From an uncultured Clostridia bacterium (GTDB lineage: Bacteria; Bacillota; Clostridia; Christensenellales; UBA1242), in the NCBI GenBank assembly GCA_944372325.1, contig CALVYR010000001.1, positions 35,143 to 99,142 on the forward strand: a DNA stretch of 64,000 nt, written 5' to 3'. The notes under the pieces are model-generated. The model saw only the letters and a list, made by a program, of their open reading frames with translations. It did no database searches and was not told where the DNA came from. Positions 14,386-59,891 of this stretch are shown here, in pieces. The first letter of the stretch is position 1, and the number at the start of each line of letters is the position of its first letter. Both the position numbers and the translations under genes were made by a program.

Positions 14386-14403
14386 TCTTTTCTCCATTAA
14401 ATT

Positions 14404-26400: not shown

Positions 26401-29400
26401 AGGCTCAATAGAAAGTTCATCTGTTTCAGGCTCTATTGCATCGGCACCATTAAATAGTTGAACTCTGAATTGCTTTGTGAAGTTTTCTGTAATAATAGCT
26501 TTAAATGGATCAGCAAGATTTGCAACATTTAATGTTAATGAAACGCTAATAGGATCTTGAACAAAGTTCTCCATACCAGCAGTTAATATGTTATGCACGC
26601 CAATTTGAGTTCCGTCTACTATTAAACCTGTGTTTCCACTAATACTTGCTTCAACTGTAATGTCATTTTGTGTAAGATTTATTGCCCTGTTTGTTGCAAT
26701 TCTTGAAGTAGAAATAGAAGTTGATACAACATCTGAACTACCATATTTTATTGAAATATCTGTACTTGAACCAAGCTCTGTTCCGTAATATGAAAGTGTA
26801 TAATCAGATATCTTATATATAATAGTAGCATTAAAATCTTTCTTTAAAGTGTAATCGTATTTAGAGAACACGCTAAAGGTGAAGCTACCATTTAGCACAT
26901 CTTGTATGCTAATATAATTAGAACCTGCAAAGATAGGTGCATCCCCTACAGTTATTCTTATTGAAGAAGTGTTAGTTACACCAAATAAACTTGTGAAGTT
27001 CACACTATTCCAACTTGCAAGCACAGCATTTTCCATATCTGTAAGCGTCATGCCGTTTGCTTCATAGTAGAAGAAAATTACATTTCCATTATCATCAGTT
27101 AAAGTTAAATCTGTGTTTAAAATGTTAAACTCAGAGATATCATCTAATTCCGCATCCTGCATTATTGCATTGAAATATGGATATCCGTTATTAACATTTG
27201 CTGAGAAATTCCATAACTGATTAGAGCCAAAGGAGATATCTTTGTATACATTTTTTAAATCTGGATAGGTAGAAGGAGTAGCAATTTCACTGTAGTTAGC
27301 TATTATCTTATATGGATTTTTAATATCATTTGTAAAGATATACGCATTTTGAAGATAACTTAATCCAGAACTATTTCCCACAAAGTTAGAGGTGTTCACT
27401 TTAGCAAAACTTGCATTTACATTACCACCTAAAATTTCACCAACTAGTGCACCAATATTGGTTCCTGTTAAAACAGTATCTGAATTTGCAATATTATTTC
27501 CCTCACCATCTTGCAGTGGTTTAACATAAGAGTAGGCATAGCTATAGTTTAGTGTACCTGCAGTCATTTGACCAACAAGTCCACCTACTGTAGTTCCGTT
27601 ATAGTTTGAAATAGAATTTGAATATCTATAGAATTCCACTTCAGCGTATTCGATACTGCCTGTGTTTAAACCAGCTATACCACCAACATAGGAAGTTGCA
27701 TTTGTATTTTCTATAGAACCATAAAATTTAACATTGGAAATTATTCCACTATTTATAGCAACTATACCACCAGTAATAGTTTCAGTTGAAGCCTGAGTTA
27801 CAGTGCTTGGTAAATATTCATCGCCATTTGACCAGGTATCAACTGTGACATTTCTAATTGTACCTCTATTTTCTTGAGCAACAAAACCCTGTGTAGCCTG
27901 GCCAATTAAGGTTATATCTTCTATAACGGCGTTTTCACCCAAAACTGTAAATAATGAGGTTCCATTAATAAGTAGTGTATGGCAAGTTTCCTCGCTTACA
28001 AGCTTTCCAAAAAGTCCACCAGTAAACACAACAGTGTTTCCGTCTAATGTGTCAAGAGGAGTAGTTATAGCTTCATTTAATTCAATAACATCTATTGTTA
28101 ATGTATAGTAAAGCTCTGGATATGTCTGTATCCAAGTTCTTAAGGTGTCTATATTTGAAATTCTATAAGAAGTTTCCCTTGAACGACCGTCAGCTATTGT
28201 AATTGGAATGTATTTTGCTACATCTACATCTCCTGGAACATATCTGCCACCAATATAGGAATCTTCAGGTGCAACTCTTATGTATCCTGAGCCACCAATT
28301 GTTTGATTTCTAGAGAGTGTTACAAGACCTGTAGTTCTATTTAATGTAATAACATTAGAGCTAGTACCGTCATTGGGTATGAATTCATAAATAAGATTTG
28401 TATTTAATGGATTATTAGATGTATCAGCATGAGCATTGATATCATATTGTTGATCTTGAGAATCTTCAAGATCTCTTTCAATTTCTAGATAAATTCCTGT
28501 TTCTACAGTAACATTATCTAGTATTATATTTTCCACTTTATTTGCCTTGCGAATAGTTAATAAGAATGACCTATTTACTTCGCTATTAAACTCTGAAGCC
28601 CTAGCAAGCAAGCTATCTGTAATAACATTGGCTATAGCAAGCCCACCAGATGTAAGTTCATAGGTGCTTTTAGCAGAAATTGATACTTGTTTTAAATCTT
28701 GAGAGAATGTTACTGTATAAAGCGTTCTAGTGTCTGTAATATTTTCACTACGATATGTAATTGTTATATCATGCTCACCTGCACCATATTCATTGTTTTG
28801 AATAAACCAAGTGAGTTTATCATAAGTTGGTTGATTTAAGTTATCACCATTATTAAATACTAAATTGAATGTGAGTTTTGAATTTTCTAAGTTTGCATCG
28901 CCTACACTATCTTCTGAATATAGAGTTGCACTTGACCTAGATAATAACATTGAAGTTATAGGAATATAACTTTCTATAACAAAATATCTATAAACATCTT
29001 TACTAACTTTTTGGCCAGTAGTTGTGTCCAAAATATAGCCAGAAATTTTAGCTCTAACTAAAACCTTTCCCTCACCAGACACTATAAGTTGATTATAATT
29101 ATTTAGATACAAAGCATTAAGTATTGTAGATGTATTTACAAAATCTGTTGGTAAATTAGCAAGGAAAGCATCTTGATATTCGCTAGAATAAACATCATAA
29201 TCGTCAGCAAAGATTTCCTGAGCAAAATCGTATGTAACACTTACGCTAGTATTTGCTTCTATGTTTAAGTTTACACTATTGCCTCTTTTGATTGACGCAA
29301 CAAACACATCTTGCCCGTCAACTACTGCATCACGCACATTGCCAATAACAGATGTAACTTGAGGAGATGGAACGGAAATGCTAACACTTTCATCCATAGC

Positions 29401-31158
29401 TTTAAAGACTTCAACATTTGCTCTTAAAAGCTGACCATTAGATAGTCTAATTCTAAGTTCTCCAACCTCTTCAAAACCTGTTTTAGATACAATTTCAATG
29501 CTGTAACGGTTGAATGTTATATCCTCGCCGTTAACATTAACAACGGTAGTTCCTAGATATCTAGGAGTATCGGAAACCACTTCAAAAGCATTGCCTGAAG
29601 GTATTACACTCACCTCTCCAAGGTTTATATTTGTTGGAGCTACCAAGAATTCTACCTGTTTGGTCATTGCTTGATTAGAAGTTAAATAGTATGAGTAAGT
29701 TCCATCGTCTTCAAGTATTGCATTTCCAAAAGCAACCTGTTTAGCTCCAACTTTAGGGTCTAGCCTGAACCTTATTGAAACATCACTATTTGCTTTGGAG
29801 ACAACTGTAACATAGCTAGATGCTGTAACATCTTGATTTGCTGTAACATATATTGTAGCTCCGCTTACAGTGTCAAAGGTATAAATGCCCTCCGCATTTT
29901 GAGTTGGAGTTATCACATTACCGTTTGCATCATAGAAAGTATAGTTTTCATATGCACCAGTTTCAAGCTCTACTGTAAGTCCTCTATCACCTTCTGGAAC
30001 TGTTGTAGGTCCTATTTCAAATCTTAACTCAAGGCCTCTAACATTTGCATAGAAATCGTAAACATCAAAAGCAGAAACATCTTCTACAAGAGCGCCATCC
30101 TTATATGTTCGAATTGTAGAAACGGTATCGTAAGCAGAAATTATAAGTTTTTCAGTAGTTATCTTTTCGTTATAATCGGAATGTTTGACTTCAAATGTAA
30201 GTTCATCTGAGCCTACACTGCCTTTTGGCTTAATTGTAAAACTATATGTTGTGCCAGTTATCTGAGAAGCTACAACTTCTGCAATATTGCCGTACTTAAA
30301 TTTTGGAGTTATTATATAGTCGTCGCTGTTGGCAGAAATGTTAATAAGTATACTATTTTTGCTCTGCAAGTTGTTTGCAATTTTTAATTCGTAATATCCG
30401 CTAGCATTTTGCTCTGGGATAATTTCCTCCATAGGAATTATGTTTGCATAAAAATATGTTTGGCTAACCTCAATTGGCTCTATAATCTTTAAAGTAACCC
30501 TTGTTGTAACCTGAGGGTTAGTTTTTGAAGTAGCTATAACCTCGATTGTGTCGTTATCAGAGATGTATTCATCTGTTACTAATAGCACATTGTTTTCTAT
30601 TGATGCACCAACTACGCCATCAGGAAGAGAAAACTCTATATCTTTTTCCGTAGTATCTGAAGGTGTAAAGGCTATAAGTTCATTGGTTAAAGTTTTGGGA
30701 GTGTTTAAAACGGTGTAAGCAACAGTAAGATCAGAGCTTTGTTGCAAGTTAGTAACCCTTTTAATAGAACTAACATAAAAACTTGAACTCTTTTGCCCGT
30801 CCAAAGCTGTAACTGTTACTTGAACATTGTTTACTATGCCAGAAACTGTTATAGTTAGATTGCTAACATTTCCTCTAACAAACTCTGTAGACACTGTAAC
30901 ACGCTCGCTAGTTGAGCTAGCCATAACTTCTTTGCTAACATTGTTAGGCGCCCCCTCTACAGTAATTGGCAAAACAGAAGTTGCCGTGTTGTTATCATCT
31001 AGTTCCATAACAAGCTCGCCCTGTGTTACAGAATCTGGAAGCACGACTTTAACATTCTGATACGGATCGCCACAAGCTGTTAGCATTGTAGACATTACAA
31101 GCGCCAACATGAATACTAGTGCGATTGGACCTTTAAAAATTTTCTTTAAGAGTTTCAT
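14404..31158 (-). CDS. Giant surface lipoprotein (5,584 aa) with Ig-like region, multiple GLUG-like repeat modules and a late internal hydrophobic hairpin
   Basis: 16,755-nt uninterrupted ORF. RBS GGGGAGG precedes ATG 31158. Signal peptide ends in lipobox M-L-T-A-C (Cys29). Repeats include YVGGIAGLNTGSI, VGGLVGQMTAGTL, AGGVVGRVVGDS and AGGIVGSIIEGN. The stop lies 6 nt before the ORF-track start (14397) of the next giant gene and 18 nt before its preferred ATG 14385. Confidence 0.85.
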   Translation of the reverse strand: MKLLKKIFKGPIALVFMLALVMSTMLTACGDPYQNVKVVLPDSVTQGELVMELDDNNTATSVLPITVEGAPNNVSKEVMASSTSERVTVSTEFVRGNVSNLTITVSGIVNNVQVTVTALDGQKSSSFYVSSIKRVTNLQQSSDLTVAYTVLNTPKTLTNELIAFTPSDTTEKDIEFSLPDGVVGASIENNVLLVTDEYISDNDTIEVIATSKTNPQVTTRVTLKIIEPIEVSQTYFYANIIPMEEIIPEQNASGYYELKIANNLQSKNSILINISANSDDYIITPKFKYGNIAEVVASQITGTTYSFTIKPKGSVGSDELTFEVKHSDYNEKITTEKLIISAYDTVSTIRTYKDGALVEDVSAFDVYDFYANVRGLELRFEIGPTTVPEGDRGLTVELETGAYENYTFYDANGNVITPTQNAEGIYTFDTVSGATIYVTANQDVTASSYVTVVSKANSDVSIRFRLDPKVGAKQVAFGNAILEDDGTYSYYLTSNQAMTKQVEFLVAPTNINLGEVSVIPSGNAFEVVSDTPRYLGTTVVNVNGEDITFNRYSIEIVSKTGFEEVGELRIRLSNGQLLRANVEVFKAMDESVSISVPSPQVTSVIGNVRDAVVDGQDVFVASIKRGNSVNLNIEANTSVSVTYDFAQEIFADDYDVYSSEYQDAFLANLPTDFVNTSTILNALYLNNYNQLIVSGEGKVLVRAKISGYILDTTTGQKVSKDVYRYFVIESYIPITSMLLSRSSATLYSEDSVGDANLENSKLTFNLVFNNGDNLNQPTYDKLTWFIQNNEYGAGEHDITITYRSENITDTRTLYTVTFSQDLKQVSISAKSTYELTSGGLAIANVITDSLLARASEFNSEVNRSFLLTIRKANKVENIILDNVTVETGIYLEIERDLEDSQDQQYDINAHADTSNNPLNTNLIYEFIPNDGTSSNVITLNRTTGLVTLSRNQTIGGSGYIRVAPEDSYIGGRYVPGDVDVAKYIPITIADGRSRETSYRISNIDTLRTWIQTYPELYYTLTIDVIELNEAITTPLDTLDGNTVVFTGGLFGKLVSEETCHTLLINGTSLFTVLGENAVIEDITLIGQATQGFVAQENRGTIRNVTVDTWSNGDEYLPSTVTQASTETITGGIVAINSGIISNVKFYGSIENTNATSYVGGIAGLNTGSIEYAEVEFYRYSNSISNYNGTTVGGLVGQMTAGTLNYSYAYSYVKPLQDGEGNNIANSDTVLTGTNIGALVGEILGGNVNASFAKVNTSNFVGNSSGLSYLQNAYIFTNDIKNPYKIIANYSEIATPSTYPDLKNVYKDISFGSNQLWNFSANVNNGYPYFNAIMQDAELDDISEFNILNTDLTLTDDNGNVIFFYYEANGMTLTDMENAVLASWNSVNFTSLFGVTNTSSIRITVGDAPIFAGSNYISIQDVLNGSFTFSVFSKYDYTLKKDFNATIIYKISDYTLSYYGTELGSSTDISIKYGSSDVVSTSISTSRIATNRAINLTQNDITVEASISGNTGLIVDGTQIGVHNILTAGMENFVQDPISVSLTLNVANLADPFKAIITENFTKQFRVQLFNGADAIEPETDELSIEPVDSFAQTVDVTLYTDNNDIHDLVASVINDEKLKADGYSDYNGVTIITDHRIEDPDDENYITQSPYYAGITNIDIYDTYREFTNGYVVVRIENPSVIAYTDKTMSTIVSDITSDTAKYFKQTYKVSFGIVDDNAIRSRDFNGKLFEILLYADSTGVSTQFDLTVETQKLSYINTTHYSLDTALWGGTGDNQRLYYTYDNIPESLLAPGKEGLLNVELYPAYSNYSYIEITTRTVLGSSYQVRLGLMEKVEGSNSYIRKTTGYETITNGIRVFNPNLANSIGSLYLRTFIPSSIDEDSTYEITIIAYNDNSDALKTDTFMLSVQHVAKPELTVNGSKQAIIPRGGSGEVTITVNADQNIDSLTINGIESGNASYDPLTYTIDETTGLKHYTTTVYLSSDLVAFEGNNYITISAETTRTINGTVERATDTVYVAVVDFVINTENTQLKTDAFNKDVLTLYVGTTQKLEFDFDIDFYLTNDSLNSFYNYNYYNSNPQAEDQTGNYIVNGFYDSMPYDFDYDSSNSTVLANFIDNLYYADTYNPDRIELSKVFNRESGQVSSNNFCAFTFDGSDLYVRGLQATNTSLEMLLRIPIQIPNGTDEPTKTYLEYYFTIDVVLETNEDKPIIIDTAEKFNDLRNATEPLDYILTEDIYLLDYEPFSTSGIRSLDGNNKTIHILSYAIPTEEASISLALFDEVTEDTTLKNVRVNTFYGGKIDLNMTNVTSVDIAGFAITNNGTITNCEVVSYSYTGADRPVPDVPGLTVNYGYSSINVENVHSRVAGFVINNENGSITNSRVGGTSLEIANGTAITPTVFNIVAQGNVAGFVYENSGTIASSFFMNGTITNQTSSGSDTSTAGFAVSNNGTIRLSYARGVYASDSEIHATGGGIETASVAAGFVYENGGTVEDSYSNIMLTTIGDKESGRLSAGFVYINNTNGVVRRSYSASRIENSNSTQMNFLGVDVNLDLQNYGLVENCYYYNSDTSLDDEYAASDMESLYDTSVNRVLDPDVRDSFYGFAFSNSSVVGYTSDGVWYMTSRGPELVSANNIAVSSRILVVEETNAEGEIVDYSFSYADGYRYGSSKNPIIIRDETEFNQVFGGDTANVSSSVAYYYDLVENKVYGNYRIVNDIDLTNLLSDETGLTLRSTEMSLTPTYSNQNEINGLGLLDGNGFTISGIELVSTLGGSNTSYGLFKELENGAVVMNLNLEIEGVNATGVNYVGALAGTVTDSRVINVSVSSGSADQNAVIYGYNIAGGVVGRVVGDSYLSNISVENLTVIAGNDVGAVEQQFYNRVIRNNISYAGGVAGVIDIYTNVNDYRFSSGLSDPNVVALKASGNMNVYGATVGGIVGFLGPQTMLQDALFEISSSQDNYSQKLIAYKFSAGGIVGENYGYLFMVRSEHSSEDQLAIENGYSTYYNNPSETVNRGNLTLFEYEDNTNYTPKYIGGIVGEFVTGRLEKSYSKLNVRSSVASYAGGIIGGITGRDNSALGGLEDYGNAQTLSLSFIELYSTGDLLASEGAGGIFGYIEEDVWNKISLEKINALNYLSVPTTEGTASGEYSIVDDKAYINNVYDIYYMPEDSGLINITLNQTTYDVHALEGFTVNDTTYYFNNSRSSGVTATSGNIISEAVQKVSELKNSNNADYSNEMSKIFRNAGWDQEYWFTETDTDVPHLFPHLTFRIEPSVIYIREASDLEYLQLYKNKTFIIIGQDGDGIVQVGDWLATTRQGFTVAGFSGLLRGRDDSGNYGLDFTVTNSTNLITSPLFESTYTGTQFSNFVIKGMGASTGIEDAKPNINAILVESATGTTFDNITIEDCSIAPTMSSGLSEAYNVGLLVGSASRCSFSNISFEGTNNEIDLTINYDNVPTSNFTVSVGMVAGNIGASTSSSSTMTVVSGIKFGAGATSAYGSNINIAFTGNTSTEKPLTLNVGHIAGSTGGMDLDLVNYEEDDNFFNLRTKIDTQDKNLIDTLNAGGLFGITNGILEANLLQRVAEQNNLSINYKLDGDDEETADKIEAVTAKFASVGGLFGRITGSTNSQFTVEAISLDNPTFRYYVNNEIYLNITGVEDSTSVSGSTNNKFFFYGGAIGRVDGSILLNNIQTEGTTTINSSALSYVGGVVGYVGQRFNATNLISGNNVNFTQNSSVTAKNNIFGGIVAVIDFKYGSVDILDTTISSITSSLNESLFNVSSKDLFYGGFVGLIPEQNASNNTQPLLKITNSVSGGGLEVGDKLIVNSAKAGGLVGSLDGNSDSSTSNTANIDISSNVVYTDLQFKIKPANIYLGGIIGIGVQGAQLYTNYSLASIIYPYARTSADNIGVIAIGVIAGSLNGTTNNGGMENYYSNQLSLMTASDSEVEANSLKATNISYGRILEVVTSTESGLGVSNLITSAHFGSKLNPFYVKDNSIEINLNGNRQPVARYNETENTWAIENNTDAPDSVYNTYLGSAGDDPFSTNTVERKYFKVETSTDSTFARNLYNLNLVNSAIFGDGTKIQITSETPEDGSSNYIANTFINELDSDSFVTGVSVLVDTRANNDSEHFTGISTGTGESQVNTGTVYYAGLVGINEGIVYACNSINSTEASDDPEIESTKGLSGGISVNNIPETIVSGLLTYDIQELVVGGLVAINEATGYISESFSMVDIVTDDSVIDNAYLGGLVGKNRGQIDSCYSTGYIQSNLTSPAEKEKVYSFSYDENSATVANSYTIAKAKSRLHNSDTGVFGVGANSSNYYDKSATENTSKNGTVLTVDQMSAYTVSTDGTSFSINTEVLTATTTNNGVTVSKYLSPVKFAQDPSINYGYPYFGGTAYTSSDSNSEYMEIDTGDGTQNNPFQIPSAGKWQQLTKAGDNSASVTIGTQTKYMYSWSANYELVYDIDFTNTGITSVTAVGTAQKTGSISDADHNYFIGSFNGNNKTISNINIANSSENAVGLFGYVGETGTNPTFVTIENVIVANSTITAKKADASTTSAGSIVGIGRNLTITNCHSVNNNVTAFNNAGGIVGSIIEGNVLIEQCSNTGSSGKIFSNGKCTTDIPNTLTTAGGILGYVIDRTGDENTNIITIFVTIEECYNTGNIVAGQETTTEANLPLYAYASGILGTSAIITDYGNNDGAEIIPSIIMDKKYVVINNCYNKGYILSNAKEPIPVNKEYKAVKIGDDGKITINTAYKLVSSFYILERKYGENAIGTRSNFRYNVYLINVHMLMRESYASGIGTNCSINACYNYGVVQNNEEDVDEFIKTEAGTTNSRIDFTMSGIAFDDNDLEKIGDKAEDVNNYNFSIINSTEEDVRVLSDKLYAQIVNVVKTGKVYLDEDSILDTLGESAAIQGIIYSIGSALLLKAGIAAAGTVPVVGWIVVGVAILVEIGCALFLPDDKQNYFLLYSGESEDSSAYNITINSSHGSQSYYFVDSYSQNLLSNNNNDFYSSSTNYLNLNLSSEMRKIYTDSFVAPIGYKSNINGSYFLEDNAFVSSDDIYDYNYGYNNLGGEPNSKKSYENLTNSNNYQSEVTFNYSYIESDAVDGYYTYYLEEDEMSVSKDNVSTNPNDVNKDYSLITHMGQQYLYKNLIYDVGNATEQSLKKYAWQLDGQINRIYSLDDYVVIKMPTEGNSDGILISNDNSDQSFIKIYYKNEFDLTPVYEVEGDPTSRITGYTITNPYVVIYERETSPEVYENPVHVRLADEITITVGDDGLYEDANMINHRDLYAGMFKLKGTLPSAQTTLTSLRRVQFSDITLAQIYQIPNQNSDSYTTLYIGEILGECYTINFDEDEGRAYFTLNSGYNDSNLQLDRGIALYVYNQGTNGNSSTISINPDYIFPEGEDIAESSLAYLVYREKDDAYIIGYYRADRRISADENVAKIDRGNKTITVNYWSIGNDTSPWAIDPAINDGLPYLKNLPIEFSYIDYDVATKEYSIYTTPIEAEGKTLAEGESFVAFNDGYRVVDDTDVPYIGYIQNGDNITYVVYYDETNKKYWTSWEDFNVAETKFSSDFYTYSSRTNGLLFLKLTNS

Positions 31159-49902: not shown

Positions 49903-49967
49903 CGTTGCTATTAAAAAAATAAAAACTAATCTTACTATCCGCGTTCAAAACTCTTTTTTTTAATTAT

Positions 49968-50198
49968 GCGGGTCACGGGAGGAGATCCTTCGGCTTCGCT
50001 CAGGATGACAACGGAGTAACGCCTACGCTAGAGCCCTCGAAGCCTCTTGCAACGCCAAGCTTTCACACACCAGCAAAGCCATGCTCCGCCCTCCACCCAC
50101 GCGAGCCCTGCCCACGCTAGCCGTCATTCTGAGCGGAGAGCGTTTACGCGACTATCCGCGAAGAATCTCCTTTTCGCCCGAGCTAGCCAGACTCTGCC
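49968..50198 (+). repeat. GC-rich direct repeat R1 (231 nt), upstream of the GIY-YIG gene
   Basis: About 90% identical to R2 apart from one indel. Internal inverted arms are ggagatccttcggcttcgctcaggatgac (49981-50009) versus gtcattctgagcg...cgcgaagaatctcc (50123-50170). The first 60 nt are 37/60 G+C, whereas the adjacent 50201-50260 is 7/60. Confidence 0.85.
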
Positions 50199-50293
50199 AA
50201 TTTTTCTTGTAAGTATATTATTTATTATCTACTCATTAATAAAAAGTTAATTTATTATTTGCAAAATAATTTTTGCTATTGTATTATTCTTAT

Positions 50294-50587
50294 ATGAAAA
50301 AAGGCTATGTTTACATTCTTACAAATAAATATAACAATGTTTTTTATGTTGGCGTAACATCAAATATAAAAAGAAGAATTTATGAACATAAAAATCATAA
50401 ACTTAAAGGCTTTACTAATAAATATGATGTTATTAAAGTTATTTATATTGAAGTTTTTGATAAAATAACAGATGCTATTACAAGAGAAAAACAAATTAAG
50501 GGTTGGTCTAGACAAAAAAAGATTGATTTGATAAAAACTTGTAATTCAAGTTTTGACGATTTATATAATACAATTATAAATTCCTAA
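50294..50587 (+). CDS. Small GIY-YIG nuclease family protein (UPF0213/YhbQ-like)
   Basis: 97 aa from ATG 50294. GYVYILTN-x8-FYVGVT forms the GIY-YIG motif, followed by RRIYEH and REKQIKGWSRQKK. Confidence 0.85.
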   Translation: MKKGYVYILTNKYNNVFYVGVTSNIKRRIYEHKNHKLKGFTNKYDVIKVIYIEVFDKITDAITREKQIKGWSRQKKIDLIKTCNSSFDDLYNTIINS

Positions 50588-50604
50588 TTTGTTATTTTTT
50601 TCAA

Positions 50605-50858
50605 GCGGGTCGCGGGAGGAGATCCTTCGGCTTCGCTCAGGATGACGAAAAAGGAAAACCTTTTTCGCTCGCAACGGAGTAGCGCCTCCGCCAGAGCCCT
50701 CGAAGCCTCTTGCAACGCCAAGCTTTCACACACCAGCAAAGCCATGCTCCGCCCTCCACCCGCGCAAGCCCTGCCCCAGAGCCGTCATTCTGAGCGGGGA
50801 GCGTTTGCGCGACTATCCGCGAAGAATCTCCTTGCTACCCTTGCTAGCCAGACTCTAC
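50605..50858 (+). repeat. GC-rich direct repeat R2 (254 nt), downstream of the GIY-YIG gene
   Basis: Collinear with R1. It carries a 26-nt insertion (50647-50672) that contains its own perfect 8-bp hairpin gaaaaagg/cctttttc. Confidence 0.85.
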
Positions 50859-50870
50859 TTTCCCTGCAAC

Positions 50871-50986: not shown

Positions 50987-51847
50987 CTACTTGGTTTTAT
51001 TTTTGTTTGTTAAGTTATTAAACTCTTCTTCACTTACATATCTATAATATTCATAACTTGGGTTTTCATCTAACATCTGTTGCATTGCTTGCTCAGCTCG
51101 CTGACTTAAGTCCTCTATTTGCTGTTTACTATCTAAACTTGCGTTCGCATAGAGCGGTTCGCCAACAATTATATTTAATCTGGGTGCACGCCTTACTAGC
51201 TTTTCTATACCCTTTGGTTTACGAAAAGTTATTAAATATGGTATTATTGGCACATTATATTTTACAGCAAAGTAAAAGGAACCTCGCTTGAACGGCCTTA
51301 GCTTATTATAGTAGGGCCACAAACTTGCCTCTGGGAAAAGATGAACTATTTTGCCTTCATCTAAAGAGCGCTTTATACATTTATAGAATAAAACCCAATC
51401 GGAGGGCGTTTCTGCAAGTGGCAGACAGCCGTAAAGTTTACAAAGGTGCCTAACGGTTGGAATTTTAAAGTTATCCTTTAGGGTTACAACAACCACACTT
51501 TTTTGCTTAGATAAAAACACAGGACAAACACTCCAATCAACATAGTGCACATGATTGGATATTGTTATTGCTCCGCCCTTTAAGCCTTTTAAATTTTTTT
51601 TGCCTTTAACTTTTACTCCAAGATAAATTTTATCGTAAAGGTAAAGTAGAGGCAAGGCTATACATTTTTGCGCAATATATTTAAATGCGCGAGTAAAGAC
51701 ATTTGGTTTTTTATATATCTTTTTATAATTTAATTTTATATCTAAAACTCGTGTGTGATAAATATCTTCATTTAAATCTTCGGGCATGCACACAAGTTTA
51801 TGTTTTTTATCTATATTTTTTTGCTTCATGCAAAGTAATTTTAACAC
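50987..51847 (-). CDS. 1-acyl-sn-glycerol-3-phosphate acyltransferase (PlsC/LPLAT family)
   Basis: GTG start. Contains the HX4D motif NHVHYVD and an FPEASLWP block. Confidence 0.8.
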   Translation of the reverse strand: MLKLLCMKQKNIDKKHKLVCMPEDLNEDIYHTRVLDIKLNYKKIYKKPNVFTRAFKYIAQKCIALPLLYLYDKIYLGVKVKGKKNLKGLKGGAITISNHVHYVDWSVCPVFLSKQKSVVVVTLKDNFKIPTVRHLCKLYGCLPLAETPSDWVLFYKCIKRSLDEGKIVHLFPEASLWPYYNKLRPFKRGSFYFAVKYNVPIIPYLITFRKPKGIEKLVRRAPRLNIIVGEPLYANASLDSKQQIEDLSQRAEQAMQQMLDENPSYEYYRYVSEEEFNNLTNKNKTK

Positions 51848-51959
51848 ATTTTTATAACTTTAAAAACTATTTTAACAGAATTTTTAATAAAAGTAAGGTT
51901 TAATTGTTTACAATTTTTTATTTTTTTATTATACTAAATAGGTTTTAAAAGGATAGAGT

Positions 51960-53744
51960 ATGTATACAGTTAAACAAATTAAAGACACTTTTTTAAATTA
52001 CTTTGAAAAAAATGGTCATAAAATTATAGACGGCGCATCAATTGTGCCAGAAGATGACCCAACACTACTTTTTATCAACGCTGGCATGGCGCCTATGAAA
52101 AAAGTTTTTACTGGCGAGCAAGCCCCACAAGCTAAAAGAATGTGCAACATTCAAAACTGCATTAGAACTATAGATATAGATAGCATTGGCGACCGACATC
52201 ACCTTTCAAGCTTTTATATGCTCGGTTCTTGGAGCATTGGCGACTACTTTAAAGAGGGCGCTATCCACTACGCTTTTGAGCTTCTAACTAAAGGTTTTAA
52301 CATACCTAAAGAAAAACTCTATGTTACAGTTTTCTCTGGTGATGAAAAGCGTGGAATACCTGCAGACAACGAAAGCATAGAACACTGGAAGAAAAACGGC
52401 ATTCCAGAAAGCCATATTATAAGATGCGGTTTTGAGGACAACTTCTGGCGCATTGGTAGCGACCACGATGCAGGACCTTGCGGACCTTGCACTGAGATGT
52501 TCTATGATACAGGCGCAGAACACGGGCCAAGCTATGAAGAAACAGGCATATTTGATGATAAAAATCGCTACATTGAAATTTGGAACGCTGGCGTGTTTAT
52601 GGAATATTATCAAGATGAGAACGGAAACTACACAAAGCTTAAAATGAAGAGCGTAGACACAGGCTCTGGCTTAGAGCGTATGATTATGACGCTAAATGGT
52701 TTAGAGAGCGCATACGATACTGAAGTATTCCTTCCAATAATTGAGTATTTACAAAATAATTCTAAAACTCCAATACTTGAAAGTTTAAGAATTATAGCTG
52801 ACCACATTAGAACTTCTATATTCATATTAAACGCAGGCGTAGAGCCATCTAATGTTAAGCGTGGGTATGTGCTTAGAAGACTAATAAGGCGTGCTATTCG
52901 CCACATGAGAACTATTGGACTTGAAGATAGTAAAATTCCAGAGCTTTTAACTCTTACCATGGATAACATGAAAAAAATAGACCTAGAACCTAAGTGGAAC
53001 TACTCTAAGAATGAAATTATAGATAAATTCATGGCAGAGTTTGCAAAATTTTCAAAAAGCTTAGAGCAAGGCGTTAAGGCATTTAACGACTATATTAAAG
53101 ATGAAAATAACATCCAAAATGGAAAACTTGATAGCAAAATTGCCTTTAAACTTTTTGATACATTTGGCTTCCCTCTTGAAATTACCAAAGAACTTGCAAT
53201 CGAAAAGGGTTTAAAAGTAGACGAAAAGGAATTTAACGAACTTTTTGAAAAACATAGAGAGATTTCTAAAACGGAAGGCTCGTTTAAGAGCGGACTTGCT
53301 GACCATAGTGAAGAGACAATAAAACTTCATACCGCCACTCACCTTCTTCAAGCAGGGCTAAGGCATGTGCTTGGAAATCATGTATATCAAAGAGGTAGCA
53401 ACATTACACCAGAAAGGTTAAGGTTTGACTTTAACTTTGAAAGAAAGATGACCCAAGAAGAAATTAAAGAAGTTGAAGACTTTGTAAATAAGGCAATTTC
53501 TGACGCCATTCCAGTTGTGCGCGAAGAGATGAGCTTAGAAGACGCGAAAAAGACGGGTGCTATTGGGCTATTTACAGACAAATATGGCGATAGAGTGTCT
53601 GTGTATACAATAGGAAATATAAGTAAAGAACTTTGCAGTGGTCCTCATGTGAACAACACAAGCGAGCTTAAACATTTTAGAATTTTAAAGGAAGAGAGCT
53701 CGTCTAGCGGAGTTAGAAGAATTAAAGCTGTTGTTGAAAACTAG
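51960..53744 (+). CDS. alaS: Alanine--tRNA ligase, short form (594 aa) lacking the C-Ala domain
   Basis: The N-terminus has DPTLLFINAGMAPMKKVF and the class II core. The editing-domain motifs HTATHLL (HxxxH) and CSGPHV (CxxxH) are present. The ORF ends just after GVRRIKAVV. Confidence 0.85.
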   Translation: MYTVKQIKDTFLNYFEKNGHKIIDGASIVPEDDPTLLFINAGMAPMKKVFTGEQAPQAKRMCNIQNCIRTIDIDSIGDRHHLSSFYMLGSWSIGDYFKEGAIHYAFELLTKGFNIPKEKLYVTVFSGDEKRGIPADNESIEHWKKNGIPESHIIRCGFEDNFWRIGSDHDAGPCGPCTEMFYDTGAEHGPSYEETGIFDDKNRYIEIWNAGVFMEYYQDENGNYTKLKMKSVDTGSGLERMIMTLNGLESAYDTEVFLPIIEYLQNNSKTPILESLRIIADHIRTSIFILNAGVEPSNVKRGYVLRRLIRRAIRHMRTIGLEDSKIPELLTLTMDNMKKIDLEPKWNYSKNEIIDKFMAEFAKFSKSLEQGVKAFNDYIKDENNIQNGKLDSKIAFKLFDTFGFPLEITKELAIEKGLKVDEKEFNELFEKHREISKTEGSFKSGLADHSEETIKLHTATHLLQAGLRHVLGNHVYQRGSNITPERLRFDFNFERKMTQEEIKEVEDFVNKAISDAIPVVREEMSLEDAKKTGAIGLFTDKYGDRVSVYTIGNISKELCSGPHVNNTSELKHFRILKEESSSSGVRRIKAVVEN

Positions 53745-53831
53745 CTTCGGAAGTGCTCTGGGTGGAGCCCAGAGCAAAGCGCCTTACAGGCGCTTAAAAA
53801 TTTCGCTAACGCGAAATTTTGCTTCCGAAGC
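53744..53831 (+). other. 88-nt perfect four-way-junction (cloverleaf-shaped) palindromic element between alaS and leuS
   Basis: The closing stem is gcttcggaag (53744-53753) / cttccgaagc (53822-53831). Hairpin 1 is 53755-53775 (8 bp), hairpin 2 is 53777-53795 (8 bp), and hairpin 3 is 53797-53820 (10 bp). All stems are perfect and are joined by single-nt linkers. Confidence 0.8.
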
Positions 53832-53848
53832 GTATTTAAGGAGAAGAT

Positions 53849-56251
53849 ATGAATTTTAAAGAAGTAGAAAAAAAGTGGCAAAAGATATGGGAAGAAGAGC
53901 ACCGCTATCATGCCATAGATTTTGATAAAAAGCCAAAGTACTATATTTTAGTAGAGTTCCCCTACCCAAGCGGAGCTGGCTTGCATGTTGGGCACACACC
54001 AAACCAAATAGCAATGGATATTTTAGCTAGAAAAAAGCGTGCTGAGGGCTATAATGTCCTCTACCCAATGGGCTGGGATGCCTTTGGTTTGCCAACGGAA
54101 AACTATGCAATAAAAACTGGCATACACCCAAAAGAAGTTACAAGAAAAAACATAGAACACTTTAAATCTCAAATAAAGAGCCTTGGCATATCTTTTGACT
54201 GGGATAGAGAGATAAACACCACGGACGAAGACTACTACAAATGGACACAGTGGATATTCTTGCAGTTCTTTAAAAAGGGCCTCGCTTACAAAGCAGAAGC
54301 CAACATAAACTGGTGTCCCAAGTGTAAAATAGGTCTTTCTAATGAAGAGAGCGAAGGTGGCGTTTGTGAAAGATGCGGAACGCCAACAATTCAAAAGCCA
54401 AAGAGCCAATGGATGCTGAAAATGAGCGAATATGCTGAAAAACTTCTAGAAGGCTTAAATGAAACGCACTACTGGGAAAACATAAAGGCAATGCAAAGAA
54501 AATGGATAGGCAAAAGCGAGGGCACTACCCTTCACTGCAAGCTAGAGTGCGGAGAAAGCTTTGACATATTTACCACCTGTATAGAAACGGTGTTTGGCAT
54601 AACCTACTTTGTGCTTGCTCCAGAAAATCCACTTGTAGACAAACTTAAAGATAAAATACAAAACTGGGACGAAGTGCTAGCTTATAGAGAAAAGGCAGCA
54701 AAAAAATCTGAGTTTGAAAGAACGGAGCTTGTAAAGGAAAAATCTGGTTGCGAGCTTAAAGGGATAACGGCAATAAACCCAATAAACGGCGCAAAAGTGC
54801 CCGTGTTTATTGGCGATTATGTGCTAGCAAACTACGGCTCGGGTGCCGTTATGGCAGTGCCTGCCCACGACCAAAGAGACTACGACTTTGCTAAGCTTAT
54901 GAACCTTCCAATGATAGAGGTTATCTCTGGCGGAGATATAAAAGAAAAGGCATTTGAAAAAGGCGACTATTTAGGAAAAGGCTGCAAACTTATAAATTCT
55001 GGCGAATTTACAGGCTTAACTGTTGAAGAAGCAAAGGTAGCGCTAAATAAATATCTTGAAGAAAAAGGCTTAGGCAAAAAGGAATGCACATATAAGATGC
55101 GTGACTGGGTGTTCAGCCGTCAAAGATATTGGGGCGAGCCTGTGCCACTAGTTTACTGCGAGCATTGTGGCTGGGTGGCTGTTCCAGACGAAGAGCTTCC
55201 TGTAAAGCTTCCTAATGTAGATAAATATAAGCCAACAGACGATGGTGAAAGTCCACTTTCTAGAATTACAGACTGGGTAAACACCACTTGCCCACAATGC
55301 GGAAAACCTGCAAAGCGTGAAACCGATGTTATGCCAAACTGGGCGGGTTCCTCTTGGTATTGGCTACGCTATATAGATCCACATAACGACAATGCCTTTG
55401 CCGACTTTGACAAAATGAAATATTGGGGCAAGGTAGATATCTACAATGGCGGAGGTGAACATGTTACAAGGCACCTACTCTACGCAAGATTTTGGCATAA
55501 ATTTTTATATGATAACGGCTTAGTTCCATATAGTGAGCCATTTGATAAGCGCGTACAACAAGGCATAATTTTAGCTAAAGATGGCTCTAAAATGAGCAAG
55601 TCCGCAGGAAACACCGTAGACCCAATGGAATATGTAGAAACTTACGGCGCAGATGTATCTAGGCTTGGACAGATGTTCATGGGTGACTACACGGAAATGA
55701 AGCCTTGGAGTGATGCCACAATGAAACCTTGCGAAAGGCTACTTAATAGAATAGTTGCATTAAAAGATAAAGTTCAAACGGGCGAAATAAGAGATGAACA
55801 GAAATTCATATGTGCAAGCAGTATAAAGAAAGTTAATGAAGACATAGAGAACTTAAAATTTAACACGGCAATTTCCCAGATTATGATCTTCACAACCGCG
55901 CTAGAAAAACTAGATAAAATAACTTCTGAAGAATATAAAGTACTACTTAGAATTTTAAACCCATTTGCTCCACACATCACGGAAGAACTTTGGGAAGAAT
56001 GTAAATTCACGCCTTCAATAGAAAACACACCTTGGCCAAGCTATAACGAAACTGACCTTATTCAAAACGAAGTAGAGATAGCTGTTCAGCAAAATAGTAA
56101 AATTATAGGCAGAATAAATGTCTCCCCTACAAGCAGTCAAAGTGAAGTTGAAGAAAAGGTGAAAATAGAGTTTGCTTCAAAATTCCAAGGCAAACAAATA
56201 ATAAAAGTAGTGCTTATTCCGTCAAGATTAATAAACTTTATAGTAAAATAA
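53849..56251 (+). CDS. leuS: Leucine--tRNA ligase
   Basis: 800 aa. RBS AAGGAG. Contains the HIGH-type motif (GLHVGH) and KMSKS (GSKMSKSAGN). Confidence 0.95.
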   Translation: MNFKEVEKKWQKIWEEEHRYHAIDFDKKPKYYILVEFPYPSGAGLHVGHTPNQIAMDILARKKRAEGYNVLYPMGWDAFGLPTENYAIKTGIHPKEVTRKNIEHFKSQIKSLGISFDWDREINTTDEDYYKWTQWIFLQFFKKGLAYKAEANINWCPKCKIGLSNEESEGGVCERCGTPTIQKPKSQWMLKMSEYAEKLLEGLNETHYWENIKAMQRKWIGKSEGTTLHCKLECGESFDIFTTCIETVFGITYFVLAPENPLVDKLKDKIQNWDEVLAYREKAAKKSEFERTELVKEKSGCELKGITAINPINGAKVPVFIGDYVLANYGSGAVMAVPAHDQRDYDFAKLMNLPMIEVISGGDIKEKAFEKGDYLGKGCKLINSGEFTGLTVEEAKVALNKYLEEKGLGKKECTYKMRDWVFSRQRYWGEPVPLVYCEHCGWVAVPDEELPVKLPNVDKYKPTDDGESPLSRITDWVNTTCPQCGKPAKRETDVMPNWAGSSWYWLRYIDPHNDNAFADFDKMKYWGKVDIYNGGGEHVTRHLLYARFWHKFLYDNGLVPYSEPFDKRVQQGIILAKDGSKMSKSAGNTVDPMEYVETYGADVSRLGQMFMGDYTEMKPWSDATMKPCERLLNRIVALKDKVQTGEIRDEQKFICASSIKKVNEDIENLKFNTAISQIMIFTTALEKLDKITSEEYKVLLRILNPFAPHITEELWEECKFTPSIENTPWPSYNETDLIQNEVEIAVQQNSKIIGRINVSPTSSQSEVEEKVKIEFASKFQGKQIIKVVLIPSRLINFIVK

Positions 56252-56286
56252 AAAAAATATCACGATTAAATTCGTGATATTTTTTT
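56251..56286. terminator. Rho-independent terminator after leuS (bidirectional shape)
   Basis: Stem atatcacga (56257-56265) / tcgtgatat (56272-56280), flanked by an A7 run and a T6 run. Confidence 0.8.
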
Positions 56287-56449
56287 GATATAAACAATTC
56301 TTTAATTATGTTGCACTCTCCCAACCAGACTTTTGGTGATAATAACCTATGCTATCTGAAGCCGAAATGCTAGTTACTACATTTGTAGTCCAACTAGTAG
56401 GCATATCCGCCGAGTCCGTTTTTACCCAAGTGCCACTTGGGAGTGTAAA

Positions 56450-56513
56450 TTTTTATTTTACATTCCTGCCAACCTGTAGCTTGAACAAAAATGCACCTTT
56501 TAAAAGATTTTTT
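56450..56513. repeat. Dispersed ~65-nt repeat, copy B
   Basis: See copy A at 49502-49567. Confidence 0.7.
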
Positions 56514-56584
56514 ATTACACAATCTAATTATTTTGTTTTGTATTTTAAATTTTTTTGTATATACTATCTTTCAAGAGGTGCTTT

Positions 56585-57337
56585 ATGGATGAAACTTTAG
56601 AAAATCAAAATAATAAACCTAAAAAAATTTCTAAAGGTTTACTAGCTGAATATATTGTGTTTGGAATTACTCTTGCATGCTTTGTTTTTGCTGTAATTTA
56701 CTTTTTAATTTCTCCAGGCGGACATGACGGCTATGTGCTTGGAATTCTTCAACGATTAGGCATGATTATTTTAATATTTTTGCCTATGATCCTTGAAAGA
56801 ATCTTTAAATTTAAATTCCCAGTTTTTTTTAATATCTCTATCTATATTTTTTTTATAATGGCAGTTTTTATTGGCACTTTTATGGATATTTACTCCGTAT
56901 TTCGCCATTGGGATACCGTTCTTCACGGGCTTAGCGCTTGTTTGTTTGGCTTGCTTTCTATGTGTTTGGTTTGCGTTTGGTTTAAAAATAGAGACGACAT
57001 CTCTCCATTATTTTTGCTAATTTTTGCCTTTTGTTTTTCACTTGCAATAGAGGCCGTGTGGGAAATTTATGAATACACCGTAGACGCTATAATTGTTGGC
57101 TATAACGCACAGCGCTACATTGAAAATGGAGTTGAACTTGTGGGTAGAGCCGCACTTTACGACACGATGAAAGATATTATAATTGGTGCAGTTGGAGCTC
57201 TAATTGCAGGCATTGTTTGTGCTATCTGTCAAAAGAAAAACAAAAACTTTTTAAACGCCTTTGAAATTAAAAAAATAAATAGAAAAAAATCTGTTGAAAA
57301 AATTGATATAGAAAAAAATGAAAACTCGCTTTCATAG
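56585..57337 (+). CDS. Polytopic membrane protein (possibly DUF2238/YjdF-like)
   Basis: ATG 56585 follows AGAGGTG. About six hydrophobic helices. WDTVLHGLSACLFGL and WEIYEYTVDAI are candidate family motifs. The family call is weak. Confidence 0.6.
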   Translation: MDETLENQNNKPKKISKGLLAEYIVFGITLACFVFAVIYFLISPGGHDGYVLGILQRLGMIILIFLPMILERIFKFKFPVFFNISIYIFFIMAVFIGTFMDIYSVFRHWDTVLHGLSACLFGLLSMCLVCVWFKNRDDISPLFLLIFAFCFSLAIEAVWEIYEYTVDAIIVGYNAQRYIENGVELVGRAALYDTMKDIIIGAVGALIAGIVCAICQKKNKNFLNAFEIKKINRKKSVEKIDIEKNENSLS

Positions 57338-57426
57338 CGAGTTTTTTAATAATTTTCTCTAATAAGTTGAAATAAGCTAAAAAATATTGTATACTAATTT
57401 TACTCACAAACTTAAAAGGGGAAAAT

Positions 57427-59067
57427 ATGGAAGATATGCAACTTGTAATTCTTATGGGAGGAAAAGCAACTAGGCTTGCTCCACTTTCCTACTCTCTCCC
57501 AAAAGGACTACTTACTATAAATTCAAAACCAGCAATTTTTAATATGATGTCAGAGTACATCAAACGCGGGCTTCATGACATAATATTTGTTGTTAGCCCT
57601 AGCAACGAAGCAATTGTTAAAAGTTTCGTTGAAAAGAGCTTTGAAGGCTTAAAAGTAAAATATATTGTTCAAAACGACCCCAAAGGGCCACTTCACGCTT
57701 TTCAACTATGTAAAGACTATATTGAAAAGCCCACTCTTTTACTTCTAGGCGACACGCTCTGTGAAGCTGACCTAGACTATTCTTACGACTGGCTAGGCTA
57801 TATGACGATAAGCGATAACTCACACAGCCGTTGGTGCTTAATTAAAACAAATTCAGATGAGGATGTTACTGCAATTATAGATAAACCAAATTATACACCA
57901 GAAACAAACAAGGTACTAATTGGCCTATATAACTTTAGAAACCCTGAAGTTCTTAAAGAATGTTTGGGTAAAGATTATGAACTCCACCGCGGAGAACTTC
58001 AACTTAGCTCAATGATTGAAGAATATTCTAAAAAAGTTCAAATGAAAGGTCTTTTAATAAAATCTTGGTATGACACAGGCACGCTTCGTGACTATAACAT
58101 GACCATGGCAAAAAACATTGCAGGAAGAAGTTTCAACAGATTTAAATTAGATGAATTTGGTGTGCTAACTAAAGAAAGCGAATATAGCAAATTAAAAACA
58201 GAAATTAAATGGCTAGATACCATTCAACACTCCGACCTTGCTTTTTTAATTCCACAATTCTTTGGCTACACAATAGACGGCAACAAAACCACTTACAAAA
58301 TAGAAATGGTAAATGGTAAAACCTTAACAGAATATTTCAACTTCTATGAAATTAGTGAAGACAACTGGACATATATATTTGATAAACTTTTAAAAACAGG
58401 CAACTTAATGTGGAGCAAAAAAGCACCTAAGGACGCACCAAACATTGAAGAACTTTCAAAATATATGTACATAACAAAAACAATAGACCGCATTAAAGAA
58501 TGGCACAGACAAGACATTCTTGAAAAAGATTATATCTACGCCAACGGCGAAAAACTTTTAGGTTTTAACATAGTTTTTGAAAAGCTTCAGGATAAAATAA
58601 ATAATCTTATCAAAACAAGTAAGAACTATTATTCAATTATTCATGGCGACATCTGTTTCAGCAATGTTATCTACTTTCCTGAAACAAATACCTTTAAATT
58701 TATAGACCCAAGAGGCAATTTTGGCACAGATACTATTTATGGTGACGCTAGATATGATGTTGCAAAAACGCGCCACAACTATCATGGGCTTTACGACTAT
58801 ATCACGCTTGATATGTTTAAACTAAAAGAAAAAGCGCCAGATAACTTTGAGTACTCCTTCTTTACCGGTAAAATGATAAACCCTATGCTTTTTGATGAAA
58901 TAGTAGAAAAGCATGGCTATAATATAGATGAAATTGAACTTATTGAAGGCTTACTATTTATATCTATGATACCACTACACAGCGATGACCCAGAGGCTCA
59001 AATAATGTATTACATAACAGGCTTAAAGTGTTTAAATAGTCAGTTAGAAAAAGAAGAGGCTAAATAA
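57427..59067 (+). CDS. Fusion of sugar-phosphate nucleotidyltransferase (N-terminal) and APH/choline-kinase-like phosphotransferase (C-terminal)
   Basis: The N-terminus LMGGKATRLAPLSYSLPKGLL matches the GxGTRLxPLTxxxPK signature. The C-terminus IIHGDICFSNVIY...FKFIDPRG matches the kinase catalytic loop HGDxxxxN...D. Confidence 0.8.
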   Translation: MEDMQLVILMGGKATRLAPLSYSLPKGLLTINSKPAIFNMMSEYIKRGLHDIIFVVSPSNEAIVKSFVEKSFEGLKVKYIVQNDPKGPLHAFQLCKDYIEKPTLLLLGDTLCEADLDYSYDWLGYMTISDNSHSRWCLIKTNSDEDVTAIIDKPNYTPETNKVLIGLYNFRNPEVLKECLGKDYELHRGELQLSSMIEEYSKKVQMKGLLIKSWYDTGTLRDYNMTMAKNIAGRSFNRFKLDEFGVLTKESEYSKLKTEIKWLDTIQHSDLAFLIPQFFGYTIDGNKTTYKIEMVNGKTLTEYFNFYEISEDNWTYIFDKLLKTGNLMWSKKAPKDAPNIEELSKYMYITKTIDRIKEWHRQDILEKDYIYANGEKLLGFNIVFEKLQDKINNLIKTSKNYYSIIHGDICFSNVIYFPETNTFKFIDPRGNFGTDTIYGDARYDVAKTRHNYHGLYDYITLDMFKLKEKAPDNFEYSFFTGKMINPMLFDEIVEKHGYNIDEIELIEGLLFISMIPLHSDDPEAQIMYYITGLKCLNSQLEKEEAK

Positions 59068-59639: not shown

Positions 59640-59721
59640 GCGGGCGTGGCGGAATGGCAGACGCGCTTGTTTAAGGGGCAAGTGGGAAACCGTATGGGTT
59701 CAAGTCCCGTCGCCCGCACCA
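59640..59721 (+). tRNA. tRNA-Leu (class II), anticodon AAG, with encoded CCA
   Basis: GCGGGCG TG GCGGAATGGCAGACGCG CTTGT TTAAGGG GCAAG TGGGAAACCGT ATGGG TTCAAGT CCCGT CGCCCGC A CCA. The anticodon loop TT-AAG-GG (AAG at 59673-59675) was parsed by analogy to E. coli tRNA-Leu(CAG). Confidence 0.85.
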
Positions 59722-59728
59722 AATAAAA

Positions 59729-59757
59729 ATAATCCAAACCTTCCTGGTTTGGATTAT
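59729..59757 (+). terminator. Terminator after tRNA-Leu
   Basis: 12-bp stem ataatccaaacc / ggtttggattat with loop ttcct, followed by a T-run. Confidence 0.8.
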
Positions 59758-59891
59758 TTTTATTTGTACTCTTATTTTTTTATTTTTTCTTTTTTCACTT
59801 TTATTAAATTTTAATAATTATTTTTAATAATAAGTAAAAAATATAATATTATGTATTTTTTATTAGTTTATTAATAACCATTATAACCAGA

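Follow-up and report, generated by a model that had tools for sequence, protein, structure and literature searches.

A perfectly paired four-way junction in alaS–leuS and SCIFF operons of an uncultured Clostridia lineage

Between the synthetase genes alaS and leuS of an uncultured Clostridia bacterium is an 88-nt element that folds into a four-way junction, in which a closing stem surrounds three perfect hairpins (H1, H2 and H3). It occupies positions 53744–53831 of the window, the whole 64-kb stretch of contig CALVYR010000001.1 that was analysed. As an earlier reading of the letters alone (the sequence-only reading) had it, the element starts at the last base of the alaS stop codon (TAG, 53742–53744), G53744 both ending that codon and opening the closing stem.

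Features at the alaS–leuS junction
51960–53744, plus strand: alaS, encoding a short AlaRS of 594 aa (open reading frame list and translation; Pfam tRNA-synt_2c and tRNA_SAD on an identical product)
53744–53754, plus strand: closing stem, 5' arm, GCTTCGGAAGT; its partner in RNAfold is 53821–53831
53755–53775, plus strand: hairpin H1, arms 53755–53762 and 53768–53775 (GCTCTGGG / CCCAGAGC), loop TGGAG, GC-rich
53776 and 53796, plus strand: linkers between the hairpins, a single A each
53777–53795, plus strand: hairpin H2, arms 53777–53784 and 53788–53795 (AAGCGCCT / AGGCGCTT), loop TAC
53797–53820, plus strand: hairpin H3, arms 53797–53806 and 53811–53820 (AAAATTTCGC / GCGAAATTTT), loop TAAC, A/T-rich
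53821–53831, plus strand: closing stem, 3' arm, GCTTCCGAAGC
53838–53843, plus strand: ribosome-binding site (RBS) of leuS, AAGGAG, 6 nt past the element and unpaired in the fold
53849–56251, plus strand: leuS, 800 aa, with its ATG at 53849 (open reading frame list, Pfam)
56251–56286: terminator hairpin after leuS, a perfect A-tract/T-tract

Structure of the element

Folding of positions 53735–53840 with RNAfold returns one dominant structure, the four-way junction, with zero mismatches among its 36 core pairs, just as the sequence-only reading had described it. The closing stem comprises 11 bp, of which 10 are Watson–Crick and one is a terminal U–G. The minimum free energy of this segment is −57.6 kcal/mol, against −27.3 ± 3.5 kcal/mol for 200 dinucleotide shuffles (z-score of −8.8), none of which folds as well (0/200). 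When the whole window is scanned for folds in sliding 100-nt segments, the element is the top outlier (GC-corrected z-score of −8.3), followed by a tRNA with its terminator (z-score of −5.9), and a scan for perfect hairpins finds no other adjacent trio of them within the 64 kb. This is a genuine structured element and not a chance fold.

The second strongest fold of the window (region 59640–59766) contains a perfect 21-bp A/T-rich hairpin at 59720–59766, directly after tRNA-Leu(AAG), which is presumably a terminator.

The GC content of the element is 0.52, as compared with 0.34 for the window and 0.38–0.40 for alaS and leuS. The description of the element as much more GC-rich than its surroundings is correct for only part of it; H3 has a GC content of 0.29 on its own and is an A-tract/T-tract hairpin in the style of this genome's terminators. 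The two strands have similar folding energies as RNA (−57.6 and −55.4 kcal/mol), and as DNA both fold equally well (z-scores of −9 to −11).

Orthologous copies and a second locus

Relatives of the window, members of an uncultured AT-rich Clostridia lineage, were gathered through AlaRS homologues and contig look-ups. The closest named genome is that of Candidatus Caccopulliclostridium gallistercoris (L026, DVOJ01000004.1), whose alaS has 90% nucleotide identity to that of the window; because the identity is only 90%, the window is taken to belong to a sister species. Chicken faeces are the source from which the genus was described, and its GTDB placement is order 4C28d-15, family UBA1242 (PMC8035907). 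A contig from the window's own sample, L060, is 98.9% identical to C. gallistercoris, whereas the window is only ~90% identical to it.

At the alaS–leuS junction, another assembly from the window's strain group (L001) carries an element identical to that of the window. In C. gallistercoris-type copies (L002, L026, L047 and L055) the stems are the same, all three loops differ and the terminal U–G is replaced by C–G. Clade B (AlaRS 89% identical; L003/L025, which are MAG E13__bin66, a metagenome-assembled genome (MAG), and L006) has the element in a 211-nt spacer, 57 nt past the stop codon, with a compensatory T:A to A:T change in the closing stem. Its H1 keeps only the base, the distal stem sequence being replaced by one that nonetheless forms a perfect hairpin; its H2 is of unrelated sequence (GGCACC / GGTGCC) with the pairing intact, and all 8 H2 pairs carry double changes; and its H3 is unchanged except for the loop. 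The H3 stem sequence is thus conserved across clades A and B with the loop free to vary. Between the element and the RBS that follows it lie 6 nt in clade A and ~60 nt in clade B.

Relatives whose AlaRS shares 89% identity or more have the element at this junction, whereas the 36-nt alaS–leuS spacer of L004 and L005 (AlaRS 83%) and the 12-nt spacer of L008 (AlaRS 76%) lack it; relatives with 66–68% identical AlaRS have lost the alaS–leuS synteny and are hence uninformative. In L007 (AlaRS 80%; L007:3135–3401), what comes after alaS is not leuS but a GC-rich terminator hairpin and, beyond it, GC-rich sequence of the same flavour as repeats found at 49.9–50.9 kb of the window.

Over window positions 51960–56251, L001 is 100% identical in alaS and the element and only 98.9% identical in leuS, which suggests that a strain-level recombination may have had its breakpoint near or downstream of the element.

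An exact pattern made from the alaS copies alone (TCGGAAGYGC, 40–70 nt, TTTGCTTCCGA) was scanned against GTDB genomes, JGI metagenomes and viral contigs. Most matches are due to chance and fold weakly: 19 of the 22 from genomes, 21 of the 25 from metagenomes and the single one from viral contigs. Beyond the alaS copies, the pattern retrieved L019 (MAG E14__bin321) and L035, perfect four-way junctions with other hairpin sequences. In both, the genes on either side of the element encode a 48-aa SCIFF peptide and the radical-SAM maturase of that peptide; the element has the same orientation as at alaS and lies downstream of a canonical terminator that the SCIFF gene carries itself. The sequence-only reading thus withstands its own refutation test: relatives carry the element at the same junction, and a further copy exists at the SCIFF locus. 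A role tied to aminoacyl-tRNA synthetase cistrons, which that reading had also entertained, does not survive this second location.

Further SCIFF copies were sought by looking up the SCIFF peptides of relatives. Eight clade B strains (including CALVMK010000072.1 of MAG E13__bin66) have the element in the same place and orientation, with altered stems. In C. gallistercoris (L059, DVOJ01000007.1, from the same assembly as L026) and in L060 it has the same position, yet its orientation is opposite to that in L019, L035 and L061–L068; the sense-strand order of the hairpins is H3-H2-H1, with stems almost identical to those of L019. Orientation at this locus is uniform within clades (A 2/2, B 8/8, C 2/2) and differs between them. 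SCIFF-locus copies are known in three clades, clade C being sampled at this locus only, and two MAGs with one copy at each locus have two copies apiece. H2 of the SCIFF copies is an A-tract/T-tract hairpin. Conserved in sequence between the alaS and SCIFF loci are the closing-stem core TCGGAAG/CTTCCGA and the A/T-rich H3.

Three further observations concern the SCIFF–maturase spacers. The contigs L059 and L060, 98.9% identical, differ in that the 3-nt loop of H3 is exactly reverse-complemented (GAA versus TTC; L059:2894–2914 and L060:2893–2913), which, by sequence comparison, is a loop flip and not three point mutations. The 334-nt spacer of C. gallistercoris is strongly structured throughout (L060:2645–2985, z-score of −7.2), and upstream of the junction element it contains another long, nearly perfect hairpin (AAAAAUGCCUAAAAGCAG...CUGUUUUUAGGCGUUUUU). 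A more distant spacer of 72 nt (L069:1647–1720) has only a plain terminator-like hairpin (GAATGCCGCC..GGCGGCATTC followed by T-rich sequence), of which 10 nt on the 5' side, CCTCGGAATG, are common to the 5' end of the clade B four-way junction. This is no more than a hint that a simple hairpin may have become the junction when two A/T-rich hairpins were inserted into it, with L069 as a possible ancestral state.

Pairing was assessed on an N-padded, structure-fitted alignment of 14 distinct sequences from the two loci and 3–4 species-level clades, used in place of a plain MAFFT alignment, which misaligned the replaced hairpins. Standard pairs fill 510 of 512 pair cells and double-sided changes occur at 23 of 42 pairs, counts that structure-fitting inflates, yet each sequence on its own folds to the same architecture. 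G–U pairs are found in only 4 of the 512 cells and mismatches in 2, both of these being strain-level variants in the closing stem; the strain-level mismatches are in L060 and L061, one G–U is in L062, and none is fixed. An 8-sequence version of the alignment has all 292 of 292 cells paired. When partners are slid by 1–3 columns as a control, pairing falls to 28–53%, and no shuffle reaches the observed covariation score.

Stems and loops differ in their rates of change. The synonymous divergence (dS) of alaS is 0.63 between the window and L002 and saturated between the window and clade B. Over the former distance, 2 of 76 stem positions differ, both being U–G/C–G exchanges at helix ends, as compared with 5 of 12 loop and linker positions plus one indel (Fisher's exact test, P = 4e-4); between L019 and L035 the counts are 0 of 70 and 5 of 10 (P = 1e-5). 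Judged against the alaS dS, the loops drift at about the neutral (synonymous) rate and the stems are under strong purifying selection. We therefore regard the structure as being under purifying selection and the loops as free of it. Across saturated divergence, the closing-stem core and H3 are conserved in sequence, and H1 and H2 in pairing only. Template-switch self-correction of the palindrome would be expected to give paired changes at about the neutral rate, a pattern not seen within clades.

The element is present in low copy number. A covariance model built from the family (R1), run without filters on the 64-kb window, finds one copy only, the other matches being terminator hairpins (E ≥ 0.009), and no extra copy was found in ~160 kb of other loci. 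The exact-pattern genome scan gave one match per MAG, and BLAST searches of plasmid and phage collections, together with the viral contigs, revealed nothing similar. The two known loci, in which orthologous copies are extragenic and lie between co-directional genes, hold perfectly maintained copies. The closing-stem arms (10–13 bp) form inverted repeats at the element ends, resembling the terminal inverted repeats of miniature inverted-repeat transposable elements (MITEs). By inspection, no direct repeat indicative of target-site duplication is present at the borders of five flank types, no recombinase or transposase gene was seen adjoining either locus, and no GTAG/CTAC head is visible in the element. 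To judge from these comparisons, it is a host-maintained, strand-symmetric, low-copy and inversion-tolerant element located inside operons of Ca. Caccopulliclostridium and sister lineages.

Related systems and candidate roles

The element corresponds to no Rfam 15 family: the best match in a permissive search of 53600–53950 is freshwater-2, at 22.7 bits as against a gathering score of 49.9 (E = 0.21), and the SCIFF-locus copies have no Rfam match. Literature searches on SCIFF spacer structures, four-way-junction palindromes of Clostridia and intercistronic stabilizers of the repetitive extragenic palindromic (REP) kind found nothing relevant. Lying outside Rfam and without a literature account that we could find, the element is undescribed, within the broad known kind of intergenic palindromic structured elements.

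Its closest parallels are operon-internal palindromes. REP sequences and the bacterial interspersed mosaic elements (BIMEs) that they form in enterobacteria and pseudomonads are extragenic, occur inside operons in both orientations and have DNA-level partners; their stable stem-loops can shield upstream mRNA from 3' exonucleases. REPs are single imperfect hairpins of 20–40 nt with a GTAG/CTAC head and no closing stem, present in hundreds of copies and associated with RAYT (IS200/IS605-like) transposases. REP-containing mRNAs have been mentioned as structured exonuclease substrates (PMC12320835). The element is similar to REP/BIME in being extragenic, inside operons and in both orientations, but its helices form a perfect four-way junction, a MAG contains at least 2 copies, and no transposase was seen next to either locus.

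Among MITEs whose RNA folds stably are the Correia elements of Neisseria, the pneumococcal RUP and BOX elements and bcr1 of Bacillus cereus; such elements occur in many copies, some of them decayed, are flanked by target-site duplications, have a cognate insertion sequence (IS) and can alter the stability of neighbouring transcripts. The element is likewise small, non-coding and intergenic, with terminal inverted repeats and presence/absence variation among relatives; unlike MITEs, it shows no target-site duplication, decayed copies or cognate IS at the loci examined, and its orthologues appear to be under strong purifying selection. Fungal mitochondrial double-hairpin elements and GC clusters are GC-richer multi-hairpin palindromes lying in AT-rich spacers in either orientation, and are set apart by being organellar, multi-copy and evidently mobile, and by having no closing stem that would form a four-way junction. 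The hairpins of phage T7 early mRNA cleaved by RNase III and the 5'/3' stabilizer stem-loops of Firmicutes are intercistronic and define transcript ends, with structure mattering more than sequence; these are single, often bulged and orientation-specific hairpins, whereas the element is multi-hairpin and found in both orientations, and its processing is putative.

The inversion has a counterpart in plastid non-coding DNA, for which papers describe hairpin-associated small inversions, a 'flip-flop' of the sequence between short inverted repeats (for example PMC6342102 and PMC12928735). As described there, flip-flop resembles both the SCIFF-locus interior of C. gallistercoris, inverted relative to clades B and C with the stem kept, and the GAA/TTC difference of the L059 and L060 H3 loops; in plastids it is a mutational phenomenon of organelles and simple hairpins, and not a functional family or a bacterial three-hairpin junction. 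In an invertible switch (inverton), the two orientations coexist within one population and the genome encodes an invertase; compared with known switches, the ~65-nt interior of the element is shorter.

Several functional classes were considered and rejected. Riboswitch, ribozyme, thermometer and trans-acting small RNA are disfavoured by the variable loops, a fold that is too stable and the lack of conserved unpaired nucleotides, the last being why the element is not taken to be a ligand or ribozyme site. An operator for a dimeric repressor was rejected since half-site sequences change while their complementarity stays. With loops immaterial, inversion tolerated and copy number low, these RNA classes are excluded together with a tRNA mimic and a protein operator, and what is left are roles for which stable helices suffice. 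The sequence-only reading had offered a protein-binding RNA; a sequence-specific one, or a tRNA-mimic RNA, is likewise unlikely, given that the loops are not conserved and both orientations occur.

Among the roles listed by that reading, an mRNA processing or stabilizing structure is our best guess, and we tentatively favour, at somewhat less than even confidence, a REP-like intercistronic block working as folded RNA, either as a decay barrier or as a processing site. In the polycistronic transcript the element would act as a sequence-nonspecific, very stable block between cistrons. It would halt 3'→5' exonucleases where the upstream message ends and shield the 5' end of the message that follows, whose start is only 6–45 nt away in most versions; its coaxially stacked ~20-bp helices may also offer a site to a double-strand RNase. 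The stabilities of the neighbouring cistrons would thereby be uncoupled, as by REP elements or the T7 intercistronic hairpins. We take its sequence evolution to be driven by DNA-palindrome dynamics, in which the stretch enclosed by the closing-stem arms inverts, loops flip and hairpins are replaced. An RNA block is favoured because the element lies inside operons, frequently just upstream of the next RBS, and because orthologous sites appear to be under host-level selection; the inverted SCIFF copy of C. gallistercoris is consistent with a role for which helices alone suffice.

Several points weigh against an RNA block. The RNA-level role is one that we infer; the scarcity of G–U, the equal folding of both strands as DNA and the inversion in place are explained equally well or better if the constraint is on the DNA or on both strands; the gap before the next RBS varies, being 6 nt in one clade and ~60 nt in another; with two loci known only, the positional regularities are anecdotal; and the closing-stem core and H3 are strictly conserved in sequence, a hint of sequence-specific recognition, which pure stability would not need.

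The scarcity of G–U, the equal folding and the inversion keep alive a DNA-level structure, the cruciform among the roles listed by the sequence-only reading and an explanation that we consider rather unlikely and yet worth weighing. In it the nested palindrome would be extruded as a cruciform, or fold as a single-stranded cloverleaf on either strand, to be bound by a structure-specific protein (a junction- or hairpin-binding recombinase or transposase, gyrase or a nucleoid protein) or to serve as a supercoil sink between transcription units. It would account for strands that fold equally well, for the near-lack of G–U (which is a mismatch on the other strand), for either orientation at the SCIFF locus and for a core and H3 conserved between loci as a protein recognition site would be. 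Extrusion from duplex DNA would be costly with arms as short as 8–10 bp and closing arms 66 nt apart, however; no recombinase or transposase gene is seen next to either locus; and the strictly operon-internal place next to an RBS fits a transcript role better. A more specific version, for which we see only a slim chance, has a dedicated structure-specific recombinase or nuclease reading the TCGGAAG/CTTCCGA core and the A/T-rich hairpin, such that the SCIFF inversion would be enzymatic rather than an accident of replication; were it true, the element would be a miniature DNA module, invertible or mobile and of a new kind, that sets the expression of the gene just downstream. Improbable, in our estimate, is a low-copy non-autonomous mobile palindrome, akin to a MITE or a REP element, that has no function for the host, reached the alaS–leuS spacer from the SCIFF one and persists passively. 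The gain or loss of the element between AlaRS identities of 89% and 83%, the architecture and 21-nt exact pattern shared by two unrelated loci although the pattern was designed from one of them, the two orientations, a GC content above that of the host and closing stems like terminal inverted repeats would all suit such an element. A dead insertion would be expected to decay, though, and the orthologous copies have kept their pairing perfect, with drifting loops, across synonymous divergence that is saturated; the missing target-site duplications, the single copy in the window, the lack of extra copies in the other loci and the lack of plasmid, phage or viral matches also argue against it.

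Two transcript-level alternatives to an RNA block were weighed. An attenuator or complex terminator lowering read-through into the downstream gene would find a use at the SCIFF locus, where precursor and maturase plausibly need unequal expression, and A-tract/T-tract hairpins (H3, and H2 of the SCIFF copies) resemble the bidirectional terminators of this genome. For an intrinsic terminator, a GC-rich hairpin had to run straight into a U-tract with 5 or more U in 8 nt; after H3 come UUUU and then GCUUCC, after the closing stem comes GUAUUUAAGG with no U-tract, and a terminator scan of 51000–57500 does not call the element. The sequence-only reading was right that the whole is not a canonical terminator, and overlooked that H3 by itself is built in terminator style. 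As a canonical terminator already lies upstream of the element at the SCIFF loci and attenuating leuS after alaS would serve no obvious purpose, attenuation appears quite improbable. A cloverleaf between two synthetase genes, beside the leuS RBS, also recalls a tRNA-like operator for autoregulation of AlaRS or LeuRS, or a T-box-like leader. ARAGORN, and Rfam at gathering scores, identify only the tRNAs at 1492–1568 and 59640–59721 in the whole window, and the family of T-box leaders (RF00230), which usually regulate the aaRS genes of Firmicutes and have a specifier loop, a T-box sequence and a terminator/antiterminator, has no match at E ≤ 10 in 53600–53950 nor at its gathering score across the window. 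The stems of 11, 8–9, 8 and 10 bp, as against 7/4/5/5 in tRNA, whose D and T loops are conserved, bear out the sequence-only reading that this is not a tRNA; the loops all vary between close relatives, and the same element, there also inverted, is found in the SCIFF operon. This explanation is effectively refuted.

Whichever level selection acts on, the mix of features is unusual: a perfect four-way junction with near-zero wobble, drifting loops on fixed stems and a flipped second copy. It provides a clean natural test case for RNA-level versus DNA-level selection on palindromes, and for operon-internal structures uncoupling neighbours, namely the precursor and maturase of a ribosomally synthesized and post-translationally modified peptide (RiPP) and two synthetases. 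The narrow distribution limits the immediate impact; what is added is a well-supported, unannotated structured element of an uncultured gut lineage.

Neighbouring repeats and other features of the window

Upstream of alaS, in an otherwise AT-rich region, are two direct repeats of ~240 nt (49944–50200 and 50581–50860; ~60% GC, 90–95% identical) flanking an open reading frame (50273–50587) that encodes a 104-aa GIY-YIG nuclease. The sequence-only reading had suggested that the junction element might belong with GC-rich repeats at 49.6–50.9 kb. That kinship is not borne out: these are the ~240-nt direct repeats, the R1 model scores at most 10.7 bits on them (E = 0.84), and they have no Rfam match. 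The GIY-YIG island looks like a recent mobile insertion, since clade B and C. gallistercoris, both of which carry the junction element, do not have it in the corresponding region before alaS; a link between the element and this nuclease gene was rejected for the same reason.

Relative to the first repeat, the second has a 26-nt insertion (50647–50672), from which a perfect hairpin rich in A and T results (CGAAAAAGG AAAA CCTTTTTCG), similar in style to H2 and H3 of the junction element. Small perfect hairpins may be something that this genome produces or picks up.

Elsewhere in the window, 26 kb are taken up by two adjacent giant open reading frames on the minus strand (4690–14397 and 14404–31158), of 3235 and 5584 aa.

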